DNA of 64,000 nt from assembly GCF_963518105.1 (NCBI RefSeq), contig NZ_CAUQID010000005.1; one strand, given 5' to 3'. The DNA comes from an uncultured Selenomonas sp. GTDB taxonomy: Bacteria > Bacillota > Negativicutes > Selenomonadales > Selenomonadaceae. Below the pieces are notes generated by a model. The model was given only the letters and a program-made list of their open reading frames with translations. It did no database searches and was not told where the DNA came from. This document shows positions 56,596-63,194 of the stretch, piece after piece. Position 1 is the first letter of the stretch. Each line of letters begins with the position of its first letter. A program made the position numbers and the translations under genes.

Positions 56596-57252
56596 TTACT
56601 CTGCCGCTGCGGTGCTGCCCGCTGCCTCGCGCACGAGAACCCGGCTGCCGCTGACGGACAGAACAACAATATGCATTCCCTTTGCAATGAATGCGCCTTC
56701 GGAGATGACATCGACCGGTTTCCCGCCGATGCGTGCTGTCCCGGATGGATGCAGCTCCGTGAGCACCTCCCCTGTTTTCCCTACGAGTTCCGTCTGCTCC
56801 GCAGCGCTGACATAGCCCTGCTCGCTGCGGGCGCTGCTGTGCAGCACCATCTTGTTCCACAACCTGCTCGAGGGGAGACGCGAGACAATCAGCAGGAAGA
56901 TGAGCACCGCGAGGAGCAGGGCAATCCCCAGCGCCGCCAGTGCACCGATGTCCCCGCCGAGTGCGAGCACGATGCTGTACAGCATCGCCGCTACGCCGAG
57001 TCCCGCGAGCAGCCCCACCGTCGGCAGCAGGATCTCCACGATGATCATGAGGACACCGGCGAGAAATACGGCGATATGGTACAGTTCCACCAGTCCCCGC
57101 GTATACTGACTGCCCCAGAACACGCCGGCGGCAACGATACCGAGCAGGACGCCCACGCCCATGCCGCCTGTTTTGACCTCCACCATCACGGAAAGGAACA
57201 TCACGGCAAGCAGCAATATCTGCAGTGCCGTACTGTCTACAATGAGGTTCAT
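56596..57252 (-). CDS. nfeD: NfeD-family membrane protein
   Basis: 218 aa, multiple TM helices and a C-terminal OB-fold ([29 protein letters not shown]). Upstream partner of floA. Confidence 0.88.
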
Positions 57253-57305
57253 AGAATCCCTCCTCTGTATGCAGCGGATACATACACGGGCGCATCCGCC
57301 ATATT

Positions 57306-57349
57306 GTGAAAAGTGGAGCTTTCAGTTTCATCTACTGAAAGCTCCACTT
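57306..57349 (-). terminator. Host terminator that originally followed tRNA-Pro
   Basis: 15-bp perfect stem aagtggagctttcag/ctgaaagctccactt, followed on the minus strand by TTTTCACAAT. Confidence 0.75.
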
Positions 57350-57353
57350 ATGT

Positions 57354-57407
57354 CCAAATAAATGGTCGGAACGACAAGATTTGAACTTGCGGCCTCTTCC
57401 ACCCCAA
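57354..57407. repeat. att direct repeat, distal copy (orphan 3' 45 nt of tRNA-Pro plus 9 nt of flank)
   Basis: 54/54 identical to 63109-63162. Confidence 0.95.
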
Positions 57408-57523
57408 ACATTCTAAAGGACTATGGATACGCTTCCAAACAATAGAAACACTACGCATTAACAACTTTTTCTAAGGGCATCAAGCACCACTTTGATGCTC
57501 TTATAAAGAGTTGCTAATTCTGC

Positions 57524-57552
57524 TTGCGCTTTTCCTCCATCACCTGTATAAT
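57524..57552 (+). promoter_or_regulatory. Promoter of the micro-ORF toxin candidate
   Basis: TTGCGC, 17-nt spacer, TATAAT. Confidence 0.6.
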
Positions 57553-57625
57553 GCACAGCGAACCCCTTAGGCATAGGCGGCTACTTCTTCACCTCTCCGA
57601 CTCTATAAGCGGGAGGTGGTGCAAT

Positions 57626-57697
57626 ATGAGTTATTACGAGTTTATCCTAATTCTGGTACTCGTCACTAGCTTGATCGTTGCTGTAAAAAAGAAATAA
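57626..57697 (+). CDS. 23-aa hydrophobic peptide, candidate type I toxin (Fst / holin-like-toxin style)
   Basis: SD GGGAGGTGG 9 nt upstream. Sequence MSYYEFILILVLVTSLIVAVKKK is one TM helix plus a Lys tail. The SD is sequestered in a hairpin. Below the ORF-track size cut-off. Confidence 0.5.
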   Translation: MSYYEFILILVLVTSLIVAVKKK

Positions 57698-57778
57698 CCG
57701 CCCTACTTTGACACGGTAAGCGGTTATTCCCGTCTTTCTGTGAAGAAGTAGCCGCCTTATAGGGGTTCTTCTCTTTGT
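57684..57778 (-). ncRNA. Candidate antisense antitoxin RNA (about 95 nt)
   Basis: Runs from the promoter at 57785-57813 to the hairpin terminator. It contains no ORF and is fully complementary to the last toxin codons and the 3' UTR. Confidence 0.4.
57693..57728. terminator. Shared hairpin terminator of the convergent toxin and antisense units
   Basis: AATAACCGC/GCGGTTATT is a 9-bp perfect stem that can be extended with a bulge. It is followed by TCTTTTTT on the minus strand and by CCCGTCTTTCTG on the plus strand. Confidence 0.6.
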
Positions 57779-57784
57779 GTCTTT

Positions 57785-57813
57785 ATCATAGCAAACGCAG
57801 CCAACTTTTGCAA
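57785..57813 (-). promoter_or_regulatory. Promoter of the antisense RNA
   Basis: Minus strand: TTGCAA, 17-nt spacer, TATGAT. Confidence 0.55.
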
Positions 57814-58155
57814 GGCTTTCTAAACGCTGAATTTTGCAAAATATTTGTGAGCGGGTATATATATTATTCTGTGTGTCTCATTCCCCCGCGCCGGCACCCG
57901 CGCCCCGCCGCCTGTGAGCGGGTGCAGGGAGACACTCCCCCCATTCATTTCACAGAGAGCAGACACATACCAAGGCAGCGCTGCCGCGCGTGAGCAGGTG
58001 TGGATGTGTGTGTATAATTCGCATAGGTTCTTGATTGTCTTATTTCCTCAATGTGTAAATTTAGACCACCCTCTATTTTTACACTCTAAGACAACCTCCG
58101 AGCCGTGTTAAATAAAGTCCTTTTTTAATTTTATTTACAAATGTCCTCAACTTCA

Positions 58156-58184
58156 TTGACTTTATATTTACACTTTGTTACACT
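58156..58184 (+). promoter_or_regulatory. Promoter of the serine recombinase gene, overlapped by TTACAC repeats
   Basis: TTGACT, 17-nt spacer, TACACT. TTTACAC/GTTACAC words at 58167 and 58177 lie in the spacer and the -10. Confidence 0.5.
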
Positions 58185-58228
58185 CATGACATCAACAACA
58201 GTGTCAGCAGTCAAAGGAGTGTTGCAGC

Positions 58229-58804
58229 ATGAAAGTTGGATACGTGAGAGTGTCAACCGTAGAGCAGAACGAGGAGAGGCAGACCCGTGATCTGCAAGAA
58301 GCAGGAGCAGAGCGCCTCTTCATTGACAAACTGAGCGGAAAAGACACAAAACGCCCCGCCTTGCAGGAAATGCTAGATTTCGTGCGTACAGGTGACACCG
58401 TGATAGTTTCTGAATACTCACGTCTGGCACGCAGCACACGTGACCTATTAGATATCATCCAGACCCTGCGGGACAAAGGCGTAGCAGTCACGAGCCGTAA
58501 AGAATCCCTTGACACATCCACGCCGCAAGGAAAGATGATGCTAACAGTTATCGCAGGTATGGCAGAATTTGAGCGGGCGCTTATGCTGCAGAGACAAAAG
58601 GAGGGGATAGCAATAGCAAAAGAACAGGGCAAATACAAGGGCAGACAAAAAGCCGAGAAGCCCGAACAGTGGCAGGTATGGCGGGAACAATACCAGACCA
58701 GACAGATCACAGCGACAAGGCTAGCTGAATTGTGTGGTGTCTCTCGTCCCGTGGTTTACCGTTGGATGAAAGAACAGGCGCAAGCCCCTATCTGTGGGAG
58801 GTGA
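58229..58804 (+). CDS. Small serine recombinase (resolvase/invertase family) with a C-terminal HTH
   Basis: MKVGYVRVSTVEQNEERQ (catalytic Ser motif), SRLARSTRDLL, and the C-terminal motif ATRLAELCGVSRPVVYRW. Confidence 0.92.
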   Translation: MKVGYVRVSTVEQNEERQTRDLQEAGAERLFIDKLSGKDTKRPALQEMLDFVRTGDTVIVSEYSRLARSTRDLLDIIQTLRDKGVAVTSRKESLDTSTPQGKMMLTVIAGMAEFERALMLQRQKEGIAIAKEQGKYKGRQKAEKPEQWQVWREQYQTRQITATRLAELCGVSRPVVYRWMKEQAQAPICGR

Positions 58805-58808
58805 TAAT

Positions 58809-59264
58809 ATGGACAAAGACACACAAGACACACAGCACCCCCCTAAAAAGAGAGGACGAAAAGCCACAGGCAGACGCAGAAGGCAAATGTATCTCACCGA
58901 TGAGGAGAGGGAGCAGCTTATGACCCTGCTGCATGACATCAGGCACGATGAGCCCCCCATTCGCTACAATGCCATAAAGACACAAGCAGAGGAGGAATAC
59001 ACAGCCGCTGTAAAGAGTGAGGCGCAAGGCTCTAACAGACCCGTCCATACCATCAGCTATTACAGAGCAGAGGCGCTCTATCACCTGATTGATATTCCTT
59101 GCAAACTTACGCCGTACAGAAAAGAAGTGGCACAGATGAAAGACCAACTAGAGCATGAGCGTTGGCAAAAGCAAGGCATGACAGATGAGGAACTGAGAGC
59201 AAAGAGAGCCGCCGAGGAAATGGAACATTGGAAGCGCATTAATGCAGATTGGCTAAATCCCTAA
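58809..59264 (+). CDS. Hypothetical protein (151 aa) with a very basic N-terminus
   Basis: ATG 58809 is preceded by GGGAGGTGA, which includes the recombinase stop codon. The segment PPKKRGRKATGRRRRQMYLTDEEREQL resembles ribbon-helix-helix/MobC-type leaders, but no firm family assignment is possible. Confidence 0.6.
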   Translation: MDKDTQDTQHPPKKRGRKATGRRRRQMYLTDEEREQLMTLLHDIRHDEPPIRYNAIKTQAEEEYTAAVKSEAQGSNRPVHTISYYRAEALYHLIDIPCKLTPYRKEVAQMKDQLEHERWQKQGMTDEELRAKRAAEEMEHWKRINADWLNP

Positions 59265-59270
59265 AGCACA

Positions 59271-59307
59271 AGCCTTTTGACACTTTGTCAAGGGGCTTTT
59301 CTATTTT
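59271..59307 (+). terminator. Rho-independent terminator after orf151
   Basis: agccttttgaca/tgtcaaggggct followed by TTTTCTATTTT. Confidence 0.75.
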
Positions 59308-59617
59308 ACCTATCAATAACGGTTATGTACAGAATAGATATTTTGACTATTTAATAAATCCAGTAATATCAATGCTCTACGGGTAATTTGTCTATGGAAC
59401 TTTATTGGTGGCACACAAGGAGAAGGGAAAACGCTTTTTGCCTTGACACCCCTGCTGCATTGTGGTAATGCAAGATATCAGCAAAGAGGAGGGAGAGAAA
59501 TAATAGCACTTCTCTCTTCTCTCCTATGCAGCATAACCAATACAGCAGAGAGAGTATGTGTGAAAATTTATTTTCTATACCCTATTGACAAACCAGAATG
59601 ATTATGTTACGCGCGTA

Positions 59618-59880
59618 TTATATAATTATATAAACTTTAAGATACTTAAAGTACCTAGTTAGTTAACTAAAGACTATGCTACTACTACTCTAATAAAAAT
59701 AATAACTTATAAGCTATTATTTATAGTTCTTAATAGACTATTACACTAAAGCTATATAACTATATCTCTTATAAGCTATCCCCCTTATCTTATTTGTCTT
59801 AATAGCTATACTCTCTCTCTGTTTGTCTTATAAGCTATGCTATATAGCTATATGTCTTGAAGATACTTAATAGCAATAAC
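59618..59880. repeat. AT-rich palindrome and iteron block (origin-like)
   Basis: 16-bp palindrome TTATATAATTATATAA (59618-59633) and 12-bp palindrome TTAGTTAACTAA (59659-59670). AAGATACTTAA occurs twice (59639, 59860). CTTAWWAGCTAT-like words lie at 59706, 59729, 59768, 59798, 59827 and 59866, plus 59985. Confidence 0.6.
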
Positions 59881-60210
59881 TCCTAAGGTGCATAGTGGTA
59901 GAAGTGCAATAAACTAGCGTACAGAACATTTGGAGACACAGTTATGCACTGACACACCCCCATAGAGACAACAAAGCCCTATCCCTTATAGCTATGAGGA
60001 TGAGGGCTATTTTTGTTTGTCTTTTTGTTTATGTGTCTATGAAGGCATCATAGGAGCATATTCATAGCACACTCGCAAGCTAGTGTATTTTGAGCCTCTG
60101 AAATGTGTGAGGGTATACCAGGGTATAGGCTGAGCATTTCAATGTCTCTATCGTGAGGAGGGCTTCACAAAAACGGAAAAATATAAGGGATTAGACACAT
60201 ACCTATCCCC

Positions 60211-60408
60211 CTATCTTTTGTCTTTCGCTCTGAACGTCATTTCATGACCCAATACAGAGAGCAAAGCTGAGAGGTCTTTTACTGTGAGAGAATTGCGCTG
60301 AAACTTATTGTGCAGCCCCTTCTCGTGCAACCCTGCTTTCATCGCTAACTCTTTGAATGTCATACCCTGAGTACTTGCGAGGGCTTTCAGTTCCTCTTTC
60401 AAATCCAT
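60211..60408 (-). CDS. Small Xre/Cro-like HTH protein (65 aa)
   Basis: GGAGGT SD. MTFKELAMKAGLHEKGLHNKFQRNS fits a helix-turn-helix. Divergent from the orf158 operon. Confidence 0.7.
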   Translation of the reverse strand: MDLKEELKALASTQGMTFKELAMKAGLHEKGLHNKFQRNSLTVKDLSALLSVLGHEMTFRAKDKR

Positions 60409-60439
60409 AGCCGCATACCTCCACTCATAAAATTATACC

Positions 60440-60495
60440 TTGACAGGTTGCGTTTTCGTGACTATTATGTCTTATGAGGTCACGTTTTCGCAACC
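60440..60495 (+). promoter_or_regulatory. Rightward promoter embedded in a 17-bp-arm inverted repeat
   Basis: TTGACA, 17-nt spacer, TATTAT (60440-60468). The arm GGTTGCGTTTTCGTGAC (60446-60462) faces GTCACGTTTTCGCAACC (60479-60495). Confidence 0.55.
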
Positions 60496-60503
60496 ATACT
60501 TTC

Positions 60504-60720
60504 GGACATTTTTGTCCATGTTCAACATCCCGCCATCCCTTGAATTATCGGCAAAATCCCCCACACAGGACTTTTTGCCAAATTTGGCAGAAACCCAACT
60601 TGAACATTTTTGTCCATGTTCAACATCCGTTAATCATCACTAAGGGTACAACCTACTCAATTCTGAGTAGATTCACCATAGAGGGAATTTTGAACATTTT
60701 TGTACGAAATCCCGCCATCC
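60504..60720 (+). repeat. Modular direct repeats in the long leader of orf158
   Basis: The 27-nt repeat 60504-60530 versus 60602-60628 is 26/27 identical, and each copy contains GAACAT-N8-ATGTTCA. A partial third copy lies at 60692-60704. CGCCATCC occurs at 60531 and 60713. There is a perfect palindrome TGCCAAATTTGGCA at 60576-60589. Confidence 0.7.
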
Positions 60721-60755
60721 ATTTTTTCATCACACTTTGCAAAGGAGAAAACACC

Positions 60756-61232
60756 ATGCAGAAGACAAACAACCAGATCACCAACCCCGCCGCTACTCCT
60801 TCTGTCACCATCACCACGATCACCAACGAGGGAGAGACAACCCACACCATCACCGATCAGGAGGCTGTCACTGCCATTCAAGAGGCGTACGAGGACGCTA
60901 AAGCATACCGTGAGGATGTGCTGAATGACCTTGTGCAGCGTGCGATCGACAAAAGCATTGATGAGAAGTACCGCCGAATTATCGGCAACATGAGCGGCTT
61001 CCTTGCTGATTTGTCTATGAGACCTTCAGGCGCGGCATATCAGGGCTTCACCCACAATTACCACCTTGCTATGTCCCACCTCTGCAAAGCTGTCTATGAA
61101 CAGGCGGTGAAGGACTTTGTGGAGCTTCCAAACACCATTGAGAGACTGAGGGAAGACTTCCACGATCGCACCGCTGAACATATCCATCCTTATGACTTCC
61201 GCTATGAACCCTCCTATCCCATTGCGGATTAA
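60756..61232 (+). CDS. Hypothetical protein (158 aa)
   Basis: ORF-track entry 60474..61232 trimmed to ATG 60756 (AAAGGAGAA SD; MQKTNNQITNPAAT...). No recognisable motif. Confidence 0.65.
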   Translation: MQKTNNQITNPAATPSVTITTITNEGETTHTITDQEAVTAIQEAYEDAKAYREDVLNDLVQRAIDKSIDEKYRRIIGNMSGFLADLSMRPSGAAYQGFTHNYHLAMSHLCKAVYEQAVKDFVELPNTIERLREDFHDRTAEHIHPYDFRYEPSYPIAD

Positions 61233-61258
61233 GGAGACACACAGCGCATAGGGGCTAA

Positions 61259-61285
61259 GGGCTTCCCATTGGGAGGCTCTTTTTC
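61259..61285 (+). terminator. Rho-independent terminator after orf158 (possibly partial)
   Basis: gggcttccc att gggaggctc followed by TTTTTC. Confidence 0.6.
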
Positions 61286-61327
61286 TATCATCACACCCGC
61301 CATCCATCAGGAAGGAGACAACACACC

Positions 61328-61642
61328 ATGCCAACAAAGACAACCACCAAAGCCGAATCATTCGCGGGGCTCTCCACCATCGAACAGGAGACAGTCATCA
61401 CCATTGACCGCGAGACACGCCGCGCCCGTATCTACACCAGTGATACCCGCTTTATCAACAAGCTCGATAAGCTCTATGAGCGGAAGAAGGTGCATCGCAA
61501 TGCAGACGGGATTACGGCGGTAGAGTATGAAGTCCCTGAGAAGCTTGTGTCATTCCGTCGGCGTTTGATGAATCTCACCGATGAAGAAAAGCGGCAAAGA
61601 GTGGCACACTTGCACAAAAAGAGGGAGGAGAATAAAGCCTAG
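61328..61642 (+). CDS. Hypothetical protein (104 aa), Lys/Arg-rich
   Basis: GAAGGAGA SD; MPTKTTTKAESFAGLSTIEQETVITIDRETRRARIY... No recognisable motif. Confidence 0.65.
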   Translation: MPTKTTTKAESFAGLSTIEQETVITIDRETRRARIYTSDTRFINKLDKLYERKKVHRNADGITAVEYEVPEKLVSFRRRLMNLTDEEKRQRVAHLHKKREENKA

Positions 61643-61783
61643 AATCAATTCTATTCATTCTACACTCCTAAATTTAGGGGTTTTGACACATTGAAATACT
61701 TCACGCGATACTTTATATGCGTCGATGATTTCAATAGCCGTAAACAGCGAACTAGAGCGTAACAGACACATAGACACCAGAGA

Positions 61784-61816
61784 GAGCTTCCCATAGATCA
61801 GGGAGGCTCTTTTTTT
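61784..61816 (+). terminator. Rho-independent terminator
   Basis: gagcttccc...gggaggctc followed by TTTTTTT. The stem sequence is nearly the same as in the 61259 terminator. Confidence 0.75.
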
Positions 61817-61980
61817 GTGTCTTTCTGTCTGGCTACTACATCCGCTTGCGCGGGGAGACAACAAAGCCCGATCACTCTGTTTGTCTTTCCCGTGTGCTTT
61901 TTATTTACAGGTGCTACACACTGCGCTATCATGAAAGCGTTAATGTGTAGTGCTTCTTTACTGAGCAAAGGAGCATTGCA

Positions 61981-63015
61981 ATGAGCGATACAATCACCAT
62001 GACCAAAGAACAGTTACAGGAAGCTATGAAGGAGGTATTGCAGGGACTTCCCAATATCCAGACAACACCAGCCATCATGCAGGGGGATACCATCACTCTG
62101 AAAGAGTATGGCGGGGATTTCATGGAGCAGAAGCGTCACAGCGTATCTAAGACAACCCACTCTAAGAGTGCCGTCCTCTATCGGAAACACATCCTACCAG
62201 AATTCGGGGAGCAGACACTTGCCTCTATCACCCGTGTACAGGTGCAGAGCCTCATCAATGGCATGGCAGACCAGCGTTACAGCATGGAGACAATCAAGGC
62301 CACAAAGTGTCTATTCTCCTCCATCATGGAGCTTGCCGCCTCTGATCGGCTAATCCCCGCCAATCCCTGTAAGGCTGTCAAATTGCCAAAGGTGGAGAAG
62401 CGCAAGAAGCGTGCGCCTACCCTAGAGGAGTACCAGAGACTGTTAAAGGCGAGCGCAGGACATCGGCTATGGATAACAGTGCCTCTCATCTTCCTCACAG
62501 GCATGAGAATTGGTGAAATGCTGGCTCTCACATGGGATGATATCGACATGGAGAATCGATTGATTCATGTGTCTAAGACGTGGAGCACTGAGAATGGGAG
62601 CGGCAGGGCATACCTGAAAGACACACCCAAGACAAAAGCAGGCGTACGGCACATCCCCATCTGCGATGAACTGTATACCATGTTGAAACGCTATCGGGAG
62701 CAACAGGGTAAAGACAAACACATTGTCATCCCCAAACAGGATGAGGACGCTTATACGCATCCGCAGGTGTTCAGAGGGAAGATATTCAAATACTGGTGCT
62801 ATGCGGCTGATTTGCCGAAAGACATAACACCACATTCAGGCAGACACTACTTTGCCTATCACCTCTATGCGGCAGGAGTGAACCCCGAGACCCTTAGACA
62901 CATCACAGGACACAGTGACATATCAACTCTTCTGGATGTGTACTGCCACACCGATAAACTTTCAGACGAAACCTTGATTCAGACACGCACTGTCATGAGT
63001 GCGCTCTGCGGGTAA
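61981..63015 (+). CDS. int: Tyrosine-type site-specific integrase
   Basis: 344 aa with an SAM-like N-domain. Catalytic residues: TGMRIGE (Arg), HSGRHYF (His-x-x-Arg), GHSD, and the VYCH tyrosine. Promoter TTTACA, 17-nt spacer, TATCAT upstream. Confidence 0.93.
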   Translation: MSDTITMTKEQLQEAMKEVLQGLPNIQTTPAIMQGDTITLKEYGGDFMEQKRHSVSKTTHSKSAVLYRKHILPEFGEQTLASITRVQVQSLINGMADQRYSMETIKATKCLFSSIMELAASDRLIPANPCKAVKLPKVEKRKKRAPTLEEYQRLLKASAGHRLWITVPLIFLTGMRIGEMLALTWDDIDMENRLIHVSKTWSTENGSGRAYLKDTPKTKAGVRHIPICDELYTMLKRYREQQGKDKHIVIPKQDEDAYTHPQVFRGKIFKYWCYAADLPKDITPHSGRHYFAYHLYAAGVNPETLRHITGHSDISTLLDVYCHTDKLSDETLIQTRTVMSALCG

Positions 63016-63108
63016 ATAGTCCCAGTTTGGTAGAGTTTTCCTAGGCTTCTAAGCAAAAAAATGGAGCTTTCAGTATCGCACACTGAAAACCCCGAAAGCC
63101 TTGTATAA

Positions 63109-63162
63109 CCAAATAAATGGTCGGAACGACAAGATTTGAACTTGCGGCCTCTTCCACCCCAA
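63109..63162. repeat. att direct repeat, tRNA-proximal copy
   Basis: 54/54 identical to 57354-57407. Covers the tRNA from the anticodon loop to CCA plus 9 nt downstream. Confidence 0.95.
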
Positions 63163-63194
63163 GGAAGCGCTCTACCAAGCTGAGCTACGTCCCG
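63118..63194 (-). tRNA. tRNA-Pro (anticodon GGG), CCA encoded
   Basis: The minus strand reads CGGGACGTAGCTCAGCTTGGTAGAGCGCTTCCTTGGGGTGGAAGAGGCCGCAAGTTCAAATCTTGTCGTTCCGACCA. It folds by hand into a 77-nt cloverleaf with anticodon loop TTGGGGT. Confidence 0.93.

Follow-up and report, generated by a model that had tools for sequence, protein, structure and literature searches.

Does a short, densely folded locus of a selenomonad genome encode a type I toxin-antitoxin (TA) module, and if so, to which of the known architectures does it belong? The locus occupies positions 57524-57813 of a 64,000-nucleotide (nt) stretch of DNA from an uncultured Selenomonas sp. (contig NZ_CAUQID010000005.1 of assembly GCF_963518105.1), referred to here as the window. 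An earlier note on this DNA had described it as a 23-amino-acid (aa) membrane peptide whose mRNA folds back on itself and is opposed by a convergent antisense RNA, and had compared the fold to the long-distance locks of hok and aapA1 mRNAs. We find it likely that the locus is instead a compact representative of the BsrG/TxpA ('holin-like toxin') type I TA systems, sitting at the end of a 5.8-kb tRNA-Pro element, and it is very probably homologous to BsrG/TxpA-type systems. Its parts are the following, where P1 is the helix that joins the two ends of the mRNA, SD stands for Shine-Dalgarno sequence, and ORF for open reading frame.

57524-57552, plus strand: predicted toxin promoter (-35 TTGCGC, 17-nt spacer, -10 TATAAT)
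57559-57783, plus strand: predicted toxin mRNA, about 215-225 nt, both ends inferred
57560-57592, plus strand: 5' arm of P1, with the outer part GAACCCC at 57560-57566, an internal loop, and the inner part AGGCGGCTACTTCTTCAC at 57575-57592
57590-57619, plus strand: SD-sequestering hairpin, anti-SD CACCTCTCCG at 57590-57599 paired with the SD GGGAGGTGG at 57611-57619
57626-57697, plus strand: putative toxin ORF encoding MSYYEFILILVLVTSLIVAVKKK (23 aa; polar N-terminus, one hydrophobic helix, Lys tail)
57691-57728, both strands: stop-codon hairpin GAAATAACCGCCC..AGCGGTTATT, on the plus strand the counterpart of bsrG stem-loop SL3, on the minus strand the predicted antisense terminator
57740-57768, plus strand: 3' arm of P1, with the inner part GTGAAGAAGTAGCCGCCT at 57740-57757 and the outer part GGGGTTC at 57762-57768, followed by a U-rich tract
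57686-57778, minus strand: predicted antisense RNA, about 93 nt, ORF-less
57785-57813, minus strand: predicted antisense (antitoxin) promoter (TTGCAA, 17-nt spacer, TATGAT, TG extension), listed by our promoter scan

The encoded peptide is small, hydrophobic, and single-helical, with 16-17 hydrophobic residues among its 23 and a KKK tail at the C-terminus; the SD lies 6 nt upstream of the ATG. We folded the predicted mRNA (57559-57780) and obtained -84.7 kcal/mol, compared with -56.1 +/- 4.5 kcal/mol for shuffled sequences (z = -6.42; none of 200 shuffles was as stable). The minimum-free-energy structure holds the outer helix GAACCCC/GGGGUUC, the 18-bp inner helix, the local SD hairpin, and a 14-bp hairpin around the stop codon. 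The inner helix was also returned by a repeat finder as an exact 18-bp inverted repeat (57575-57592 and 57740-57757), and the stop codon of the putative toxin lies inside the hairpin GAAATAACCG..AGCGGTTATT. A separate terminator hairpin is missing from the mRNA, its 3' end consisting of the closing 5'-3' helix and the U-rich tract alone. Each structural element named in the earlier note is thus present: the ORF with its Lys-tailed membrane peptide and strong SD stands at the coordinates given there, the pairing of cacctctccg with cgggaggtg around the SD and the 18-bp reverse complement both occur in the fold, and the outer GAACCCC/GGGGTTC pairing is indeed followed by a T-rich tract.

The SD hairpin and P1 share the trinucleotide CAC (57590-57592), which forms the first 3 nt of the hairpin. 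With its CAC:GUG pairs the local SD hairpin has an energy of -13.5 kcal/mol, and without them -5.9 kcal/mol. Folding of successive transcript prefixes indicates that this hairpin forms once it has been transcribed and that formation of P1 loosens rather than tightens it. When the target of the antisense RNA was blocked in silico, the pairing probabilities of the 3' SD bases increased from 0.84, 0.64, 0.44, and 0.21 to 1, 1, 1, and 0.57, and the same block applied to 37 loci of the family described below moved SD pairing from 0.71 to 0.77 (p = 0.02).

On the minus strand, the predicted antisense RNA is complementary to the last toxin codons, to the stop hairpin, and to the entire 3' arm of P1; a convergent cis-antisense RNA covering the toxin 3' end, last codons included, is thereby predicted in silico. 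It folds as a 14-bp stem followed by a U-run (z = -3.1), and the Lys codons AAAAAGAAA serve, read on this strand, as the U-tract of the predicted terminator. The ORF list contains no minus-strand ORF of at least 20 aa within 57686-57778. The 5' half of the antisense RNA has nearly the same sequence as the 5' arm of the mRNA, and its binding must therefore displace that arm. These results agree with the earlier proposal of a TTGCAA-17-TATGAT promoter, to which we add the TG preceding the -10 element, and of an ORF-less RNA (there about 95 nt) that covers the toxin 3' end and terminates at a hairpin overlapping the last toxin codons.

We searched genomes, one per species, for the hairpin motif GAAATAACCG-N12-22-AGCGGTTATT, which by our own arithmetic random sequence would match about 12 times. 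At least 120 stretches carrying the motif were found in Bacillota genomes. Among the matches listed there are 129 motif sites, and the frame that ends at the motif TAA has a candidate start in 89 of them; 74 of these 89 combine an SD with a hydrophobic peptide of 19-52 aa and a K-rich end. In the majority of motif loci, the Lys-tailed hydrophobic ORF spans 19-37 aa. The hosts among these listed matches are mainly Oscillospiraceae, Ruminococcus, Lachnospiraceae, and other Clostridia, many of them from gut and rumen, and the Negativicutes are represented by Selenomonas noxia, S. ruminantium, Phascolarctobacterium, Veillonellaceae, and Anaerovibrio. A set of 62 distinct family peptides was recognized by Pfam Hol_Tox in 19 cases, by NCBIfam PepG1 in 11, and by NCBIfam ComI in 9, and many toxin-like peptides of the motif loci (L003-L147 and the viral ones) escape the Pfam and NCBIfam models. 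The motif was also found in IMG/VR, where a toxin-like peptide accompanies it on about 19 of 25 viral stretches; one viral contig, IMGVR_UViG_3300002175_000054, contains three copies of the motif. A phage collection gave two marginal Listeria matches only.

The motif links the window to characterized families at the nucleotide level. A sensitive BLAST search of the locus against plasmids matched 274 Enterococcus plasmids through window positions 57686-57731 only, a segment that runs from the last Lys codons across the stop codon and hairpin. These 46 nt are 85% identical to the E. faecium plasmid locus, and the matches lie under genes annotated as 'putative holin-like toxin'. We analyzed an Enterococcus faecium plasmid locus, whose peptide ends in ..SAYETIQTILGFGMFTIALISLIVNMLKNDKKK, and found a fold with the same layout as in the window (z = -8.8); in Rfam, its toxin strand matches rli28 and the opposite strand RatA, both at gathering score. 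A motif-bearing Eubacteriales locus (L120) is recognized by Rfam BsrG along the entire model, including the hairpin. The window is thus tied to Rfam BsrG, RatA, or rli28 only indirectly, by way of L002 and L120, which share its motif and do match.

A helix between the two mRNA ends is a common property of these loci. In most of them a 5' arm near CGGTAGGCGGTTAGCC can pair with GGCTAACCGTCTATCG, located 15-40 nt beyond the hairpin, through the core AGGCGG/CCGYC. The window shares this core (AGGCGG/CCGCCT), and the distal part of its helix differs on both sides in a compensated manner. Duplex energies and ungapped helix scores discriminated poorly between cognate and non-cognate 5'/3' combinations; the arms proved to be conserved in sequence across loci, and we therefore relied on an anchored column analysis. 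Over 45 distinct loci, the columns at offsets -4 to +12 are paired in 58-100% of cases, each with several Watson-Crick types; for 12 of these 17 offsets the observed pairing was reached by none of 500 partner shuffles, and 4 of the other 5 are near-invariant core columns. For 34 distinct arm pairs, in rows filtered on core pairing, 86.1% of positions are paired, compared with 77.6% in shuffles (0 of 500 reach the observed value) and 34-46% when the partner is slid. Both partners vary in 13 of the 19 base pairs of this set, which has a covariation score of 0.337 versus 0.194. The helix thus covaries in homologous loci, a test that the earlier note had recommended. Two helix columns are mostly G-U, as expected for an RNA helix of the plus strand and not for DNA or the opposite strand. 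RNAalifold, applied to 12 loci with short peptides, independently yielded P1, a CCCUC/GGGGG SD hairpin, and the stop hairpin.

The promoters are similarly placed throughout the family. A minus-strand sigma-70 promoter, often a perfect TTGACA-17-TATAAT, was found in 61 of 63 loci, mostly with its -10 edge 45-62 nt past the hairpin, and the window promoter lies at the modal distance (56 nt). A plus-strand promoter is present upstream of the helix core in 32 of 38 loci and is 20-50 nt away from it in 25; in the window, the -10 element ends 23 nt upstream of AGGCGG. Stop codon, Lys codons, and SD keep a fixed register with the helices across the family.

We also compared the window with its closest relatives. 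A metagenome scan for the exact hairpin returned 13 contigs, which together with S. noxia contain three peptide alleles, MSYYEFILILVLVTSLIVAVKKK (the window allele), MSYYEFVFVLVLVTGYIISIKKK, and MGYYEFILIIVLVTGYIVAIKKK. All three have 23 codons, and the replacements leave the peptide hydrophobic. In one group of relatives, the outer helix GAACCCC/GGGGUUC has become GAACCAC/GUGGUUC by a compensatory exchange (C>A / G>T) that leaves the fold unchanged, so that both the frame and the pairing of the arms, whose joint loss the earlier note had regarded as telling against a TA module, are retained. Over 57559-57784, the window differs from S. noxia (L049) by 18 substitutions in the 72 nt of the ORF and by 7 in the 153 nt of the untranslated regions (UTRs; p = 1.6e-5), and the 86-nt 3' UTR is identical; in this pair the RNA elements are therefore the more constrained part. 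Eight codons differ non-synonymously and three synonymously. The faster divergence of the ORF is not seen against the third allele group, and recombination is as likely as diversifying selection to account for it. The toxin promoter sequence is identical in S. noxia. In one relative, L156 (BNJT01000099.1), the ORF contains a +1 insertion and a -1 deletion, which convert the peptide to MSYYEFIFNHCSRHWLNDCHKKK with the same length, loss of the hydrophobic helix, and intact UTRs; the allele reflects either toxin inactivation or an error of assembly.

Taken together, the features of the locus are jointly far beyond chance. The type I TA module proposed in the earlier note is supported, at the level of sequence comparison, by a motif family with the same parts, by the covarying helix, by members that Rfam and Pfam recognize, and by compensation in close relatives.

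Among known systems, bsrG/SR4 from the Bacillus subtilis SPbeta prophage resembles the window most directly. Experimental probing of bsrG mRNA showed helix P1 to consist of nt 1-35 at the 5' end and nt 232-262 at the 3' end; the SD lies in the 4-bp stem of stem-loop SL1 and the stop codon in SL3 (PMC3834814). The terminator loop of SR4 first contacts bsrG loop L3 and then the 3' arm of P1, SR4 binding extends the SD pairing from 4 to 8 bp, and RNase III degrades the duplex (PMC3834814). The window shares with this system a P1 that closes the mRNA, an SD in the first stem-loop, a stop codon in the stem-loop preceding the 3' arm, and a convergent antisense RNA whose terminator loop is complementary first to the stop stem-loop and whose body continues to the 3' arm of P1, as well as the KKK tail of the peptide and the location on an integrated element. 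The differences are mainly of size: the window mRNA would measure about 220 nt and the antisense RNA about 93 nt, compared with 296 nt for bsrG and 183 nt for SR4, and the putative 23-aa window toxin compares with a BsrG peptide that reportedly has 38 aa. The SD hairpin would grow from 6-7 to 9-10 bp in the window, as opposed to 4 to 8 bp in bsrG. Unlike bsrG, the window has no separate mRNA terminator stem-loop (SL4), and its RNA gives no score against Rfam BsrG (RF01412).

Fozo et al. equate the 'holin-like toxins' with the TxpA family and describe for EF3263 an antisense RNA of about 110 nt over the 3' UTR (PMC2887945). In txpA/RatA and the Enterococcus holin-like loci (PF16935; RF01776 RatA, RF01492 rli28; EF3263), the promoter placement, the 5'-3' helix, and the location of the antisense RNA are as in the window. 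The Enterococcus mRNAs, however, have their own terminator and an additional 5' stem-loop, and their hosts are Bacilli, whereas the window belongs to Negativicutes. The sprG/SprF system of Staphylococcus aureus (PepG1), another cis-antisense pair overlapping at the 3' end, falls into the TxpA group, but the window peptide does not match PepG1. Reportedly, sprG1 encodes two longer peptides from alternative starts. The window resembles fst/RNAII (par, Enterococcus pAD1) in its predicted convergent transcripts, which use one bidirectional terminator, and in the small size and hydrophobicity of the putative toxin. RNAII has additional pairing sites in 5' direct repeats, and it blocks translation without inducing decay (PMC3834814); in the window, the repeat finder detected no direct repeats linking the antisense RNA to the mRNA 5' end besides the mimicry of the P1 arm, and a Pfam scan of the window peptide, which includes Pfam's Fst toxin model, returned no family.

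By analogy with bsrG/SR4, both RNAs would be transcribed, the peptide would be toxic, RNase III would act on the paired RNAs, and the cassette would have an addiction role. In such a scheme, two complementary hairpin loops (57703-57718), one in the mRNA and one in the antisense RNA, would make the first contact, and the antisense RNA would next take the place of the 5' arm on the 3' arm of P1. The resulting perfect duplex would be a substrate for RNase III, and the freed CAC would add 3 bp to the SD hairpin, shutting translation further. Upon loss of the element, the short-lived antisense RNA would disappear while the stable, folded mRNA could still be translated into a peptide that damages the membrane, and this damage would select for retention of the element.

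The element itself is delimited by a direct repeat and carries the genes listed here.

57354-57407: distal copy of the attachment site (att), a 54-nt exact direct repeat of 63109-63162
58229-58804: serine resolvase, between the att copies
61981-63015: tyrosine integrase, between the att copies
63118-63194: tRNA-Pro, the only tRNA in the window, the 3' part of which belongs to the 54-nt repeat

The two att copies bound a 5.8-kb element integrated at tRNA-Pro, beside nfeD-floA, which also encodes a small helix-turn-helix protein and unassigned ORFs. Library scans of the window proteins revealed no recognizable replication, transfer, or phage structural genes in the element (57354-63194). The TA cassette is the first feature inside its distal end, 117 nt from att, which confirms the location next to att noticed earlier. 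S. noxia ATCC 43541 (NZ_GG749280.1, cassette at about 236.1-236.4 kb) has the same layout of nfeD, partial tRNA, cassette, and resolvase, in agreement with a Selenomonas-like and hence Negativicutes origin of the window, and its element at this site is a related one with resolvase and flanking ORFs of other sizes. Several further features surround the cassette. The GC-rich segment between cassette and resolvase (57834-58025) contains three direct copies of TGTGAGCGGGT (at 57846, 57913, and 57989; spacing 67 and 76 nt) and, at 57834-57866, the promoter-like TTGCAAAATATTT..TATATAT, of which S. noxia has an almost identical version; these repeats and the promoter-like site could be binding sites for the resolvase or a regulator. 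A 27-nt imperfect inverted repeat (57457-57518, 85% complementary), conserved in S. noxia, lies between att and the toxin promoter, and a perfect 16-bp hairpin directly after nfeD (57311-57349) is probably the nfeD terminator.

A number of results weigh against the assignment to the BsrG/TxpA systems. A scan against small-toxin families, which the earlier note had suggested, came out negative: the window peptide has no match in Pfam and NCBIfam even at E up to 10, Hol_Tox (PF16935) and PepG1 included, and none among PHROG models at E up to 1. It lacks the central segment of the Hol_Tox family as well as the FG-containing motif of the family, and a profile-profile comparison of the short and long peptide groups produced an uninformative one-column match. 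At the RNA level, an Rfam scan of window positions 57200-58300 at E up to 10 gave chance matches only and no BsrG, RatA, or rli28; the S. noxia locus likewise has no match to these families at gathering score. A covariance model of the 5' part (R1), built without the window, ranked 57568-57631, the correct site, first and aligned it end to end, but at a non-significant 12.7 bits and E = 0.79. The plus-strand promoter had been called near-consensus in the earlier note, which holds for its -10 element TATAAT but is overstated for the weak -35 element, since TTGCGC agrees with TTGACA at 3 of 6 positions and the promoter scan did not list this promoter. The generic terminator scan was empty on both strands of the cassette because the hairpin loop exceeds its 8-nt rule, and it found no canonical terminator for the toxin mRNA. 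The gain in SD pairing upon blocking the antisense target is modest across the family, with a rise in 16 and a fall in 6 of the 37 loci. Finally, the family was collected with a motif derived from the window, which makes the hairpin non-independent evidence, and the register of the arm alignment was picked to maximize pairing.

Model R1 also matched the 3' half of the hairpin in the window (12.5 bits). The P1 core of the family, GGCGGUUA/UAACCGUC, is nearly the same as the stem of the stop hairpin, GCGGUUAU/AUAACCGC. In the family consensus, the 5' half of the stop hairpin could offer the 5' arm a perfect alternative partner, but just 5+2 bp of this pairing are left in the window (57711-57745). 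This near-identity may reflect an alternative, metastable co-transcriptional fold or an ancient duplication.

We considered three other explanations for the locus. The circuit suggested by the comparison to hok and aapA1 would keep the full-length mRNA inert through the 5'-3' lock until trimming at the 3' end makes it translatable and accessible to the antisense RNA. Here, as in hok/Sok and aapA1/IsoA1, long-distance 5'-3' pairing is combined with a sequestered SD. A strong helix encloses the entire message, in the free mRNA every base of the antisense target in the 3' arm is paired, which would require an opening step, and how the corresponding bsrG helix melts is left unexplained in PMC3834814. 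In the hok and aapA1 systems of Proteobacteria and Helicobacter, however, the antisense RNA acts at the 5' or translation-initiation region and processing at the 3' end activates the mRNA, whereas the window antisense RNA overlaps the 3' end, so that trimming there would remove its target instead of exposing it. In the prefix folds, a local hairpin closes the SD immediately upon transcription, P1 loosens that hairpin, and the 3' end of the window mRNA does not itself cover the SD. We found no sequence relation to hok or aapA1 and, in the ORF list of the window, no overlapping leader frame with an SD of the mok type. The homologous bsrG/SR4 and txpA/RatA systems function without 3' processing (PMC3834814). 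The antisense position at the 3' end and the local SD hairpin lead us to reject the 3'-processing lock, which we regard as quite improbable; the fold-back is of the bsrG P1 type, and on this point the earlier note did not hold.

It is also unlikely, though somewhat less so, that the cassette is a non-toxic or decayed derivative, in which a membrane peptide under antisense control acts as a ComI-like regulator or persists as a relic on the element. The 9 of 62 family peptides that match the NCBIfam competence inhibitor ComI would fit this idea, as would the shortness of a 23-aa peptide devoid of the FG-containing motif and the frameshift pair that destroys hydrophobicity in L156; among predicted type I toxins there are also some, YhzE-2 for one, that proved harmless when tested (PMC2887945). 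Yet the 23-codon hydrophobic frame, strong SD, and Lys tail are retained in three diverged alleles, a similar group of 20-24-aa peptides occurs in Clostridia metagenome-assembled genomes and on one viral contig, and the elaborate sequestration of the SD, together with the perfect-consensus antisense promoters of the family, fits a harmful product. A pure DNA-level feature could be suspected from the distance of 117 nt to att in a region rich in inverted repeats; it might, for instance, be a site of recombination or a miniature element's terminal inverted repeats, and the ORF and promoters would then have arisen by chance. But the same arrangement recurs in many unrelated contexts, plasmids and viral contigs included, the helix accepts G-U pairs, which in a cruciform or on the other strand would become A-C mismatches, and stop codon, Lys codons, and SD hold a fixed register with the helices. 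A DNA-level repeat and chance were both rejected, and we rate the DNA-level explanation as extremely improbable. The assignment to a compact BsrG/TxpA-type cassette thus remains our preferred one.

The earlier note had further suggested that the combination of peptide type and fold-back may be undescribed for Negativicutes. The architecture as such is known from bsrG (PMC3834814), but its presence in Negativicutes and a peptide this short seem unreported: literature searches, with term look-ups inside papers that they returned, gave no report of a type I TA system in Negativicutes, and a review states that peptide searches found almost no type I systems in Clostridia beyond C. difficile (PMC6563280). 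It is conceivable, and we put this forward tentatively, that the window exemplifies a separate short-toxin branch within the BsrG/TxpA systems (20-24 aa, for example MEY..ATGYI..IKKK and MSYYEF..KKK), present in Selenomonas, gut Clostridia metagenome-assembled genomes, and a viral contig, which has lost the mRNA terminator. In such a branch, the 5'-3' helix and the U-tract may end transcription. Equally tentatively, the invariant stop-codon hairpin of the wider family may provide a nucleotide handle to a very large, mostly unannotated type I TA population in Clostridia and Negativicutes, taxa in which searches based on peptides had reported hardly any such systems (PMC6563280).

The window cassette leaves the understanding of how such systems work unchanged. 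It adds a previously unannotated, probable example of a type I TA system in Negativicutes, and it illustrates that current Pfam and Rfam models miss loci of this kind. The stop-codon hairpin, the AGGCGG/CCGYC core, and an antisense promoter in fixed position together form a simple nucleotide signature by which they can be searched for. It also supports the view that such cassettes act as retention modules and are carried along at the ends of prophages and small integrative elements.

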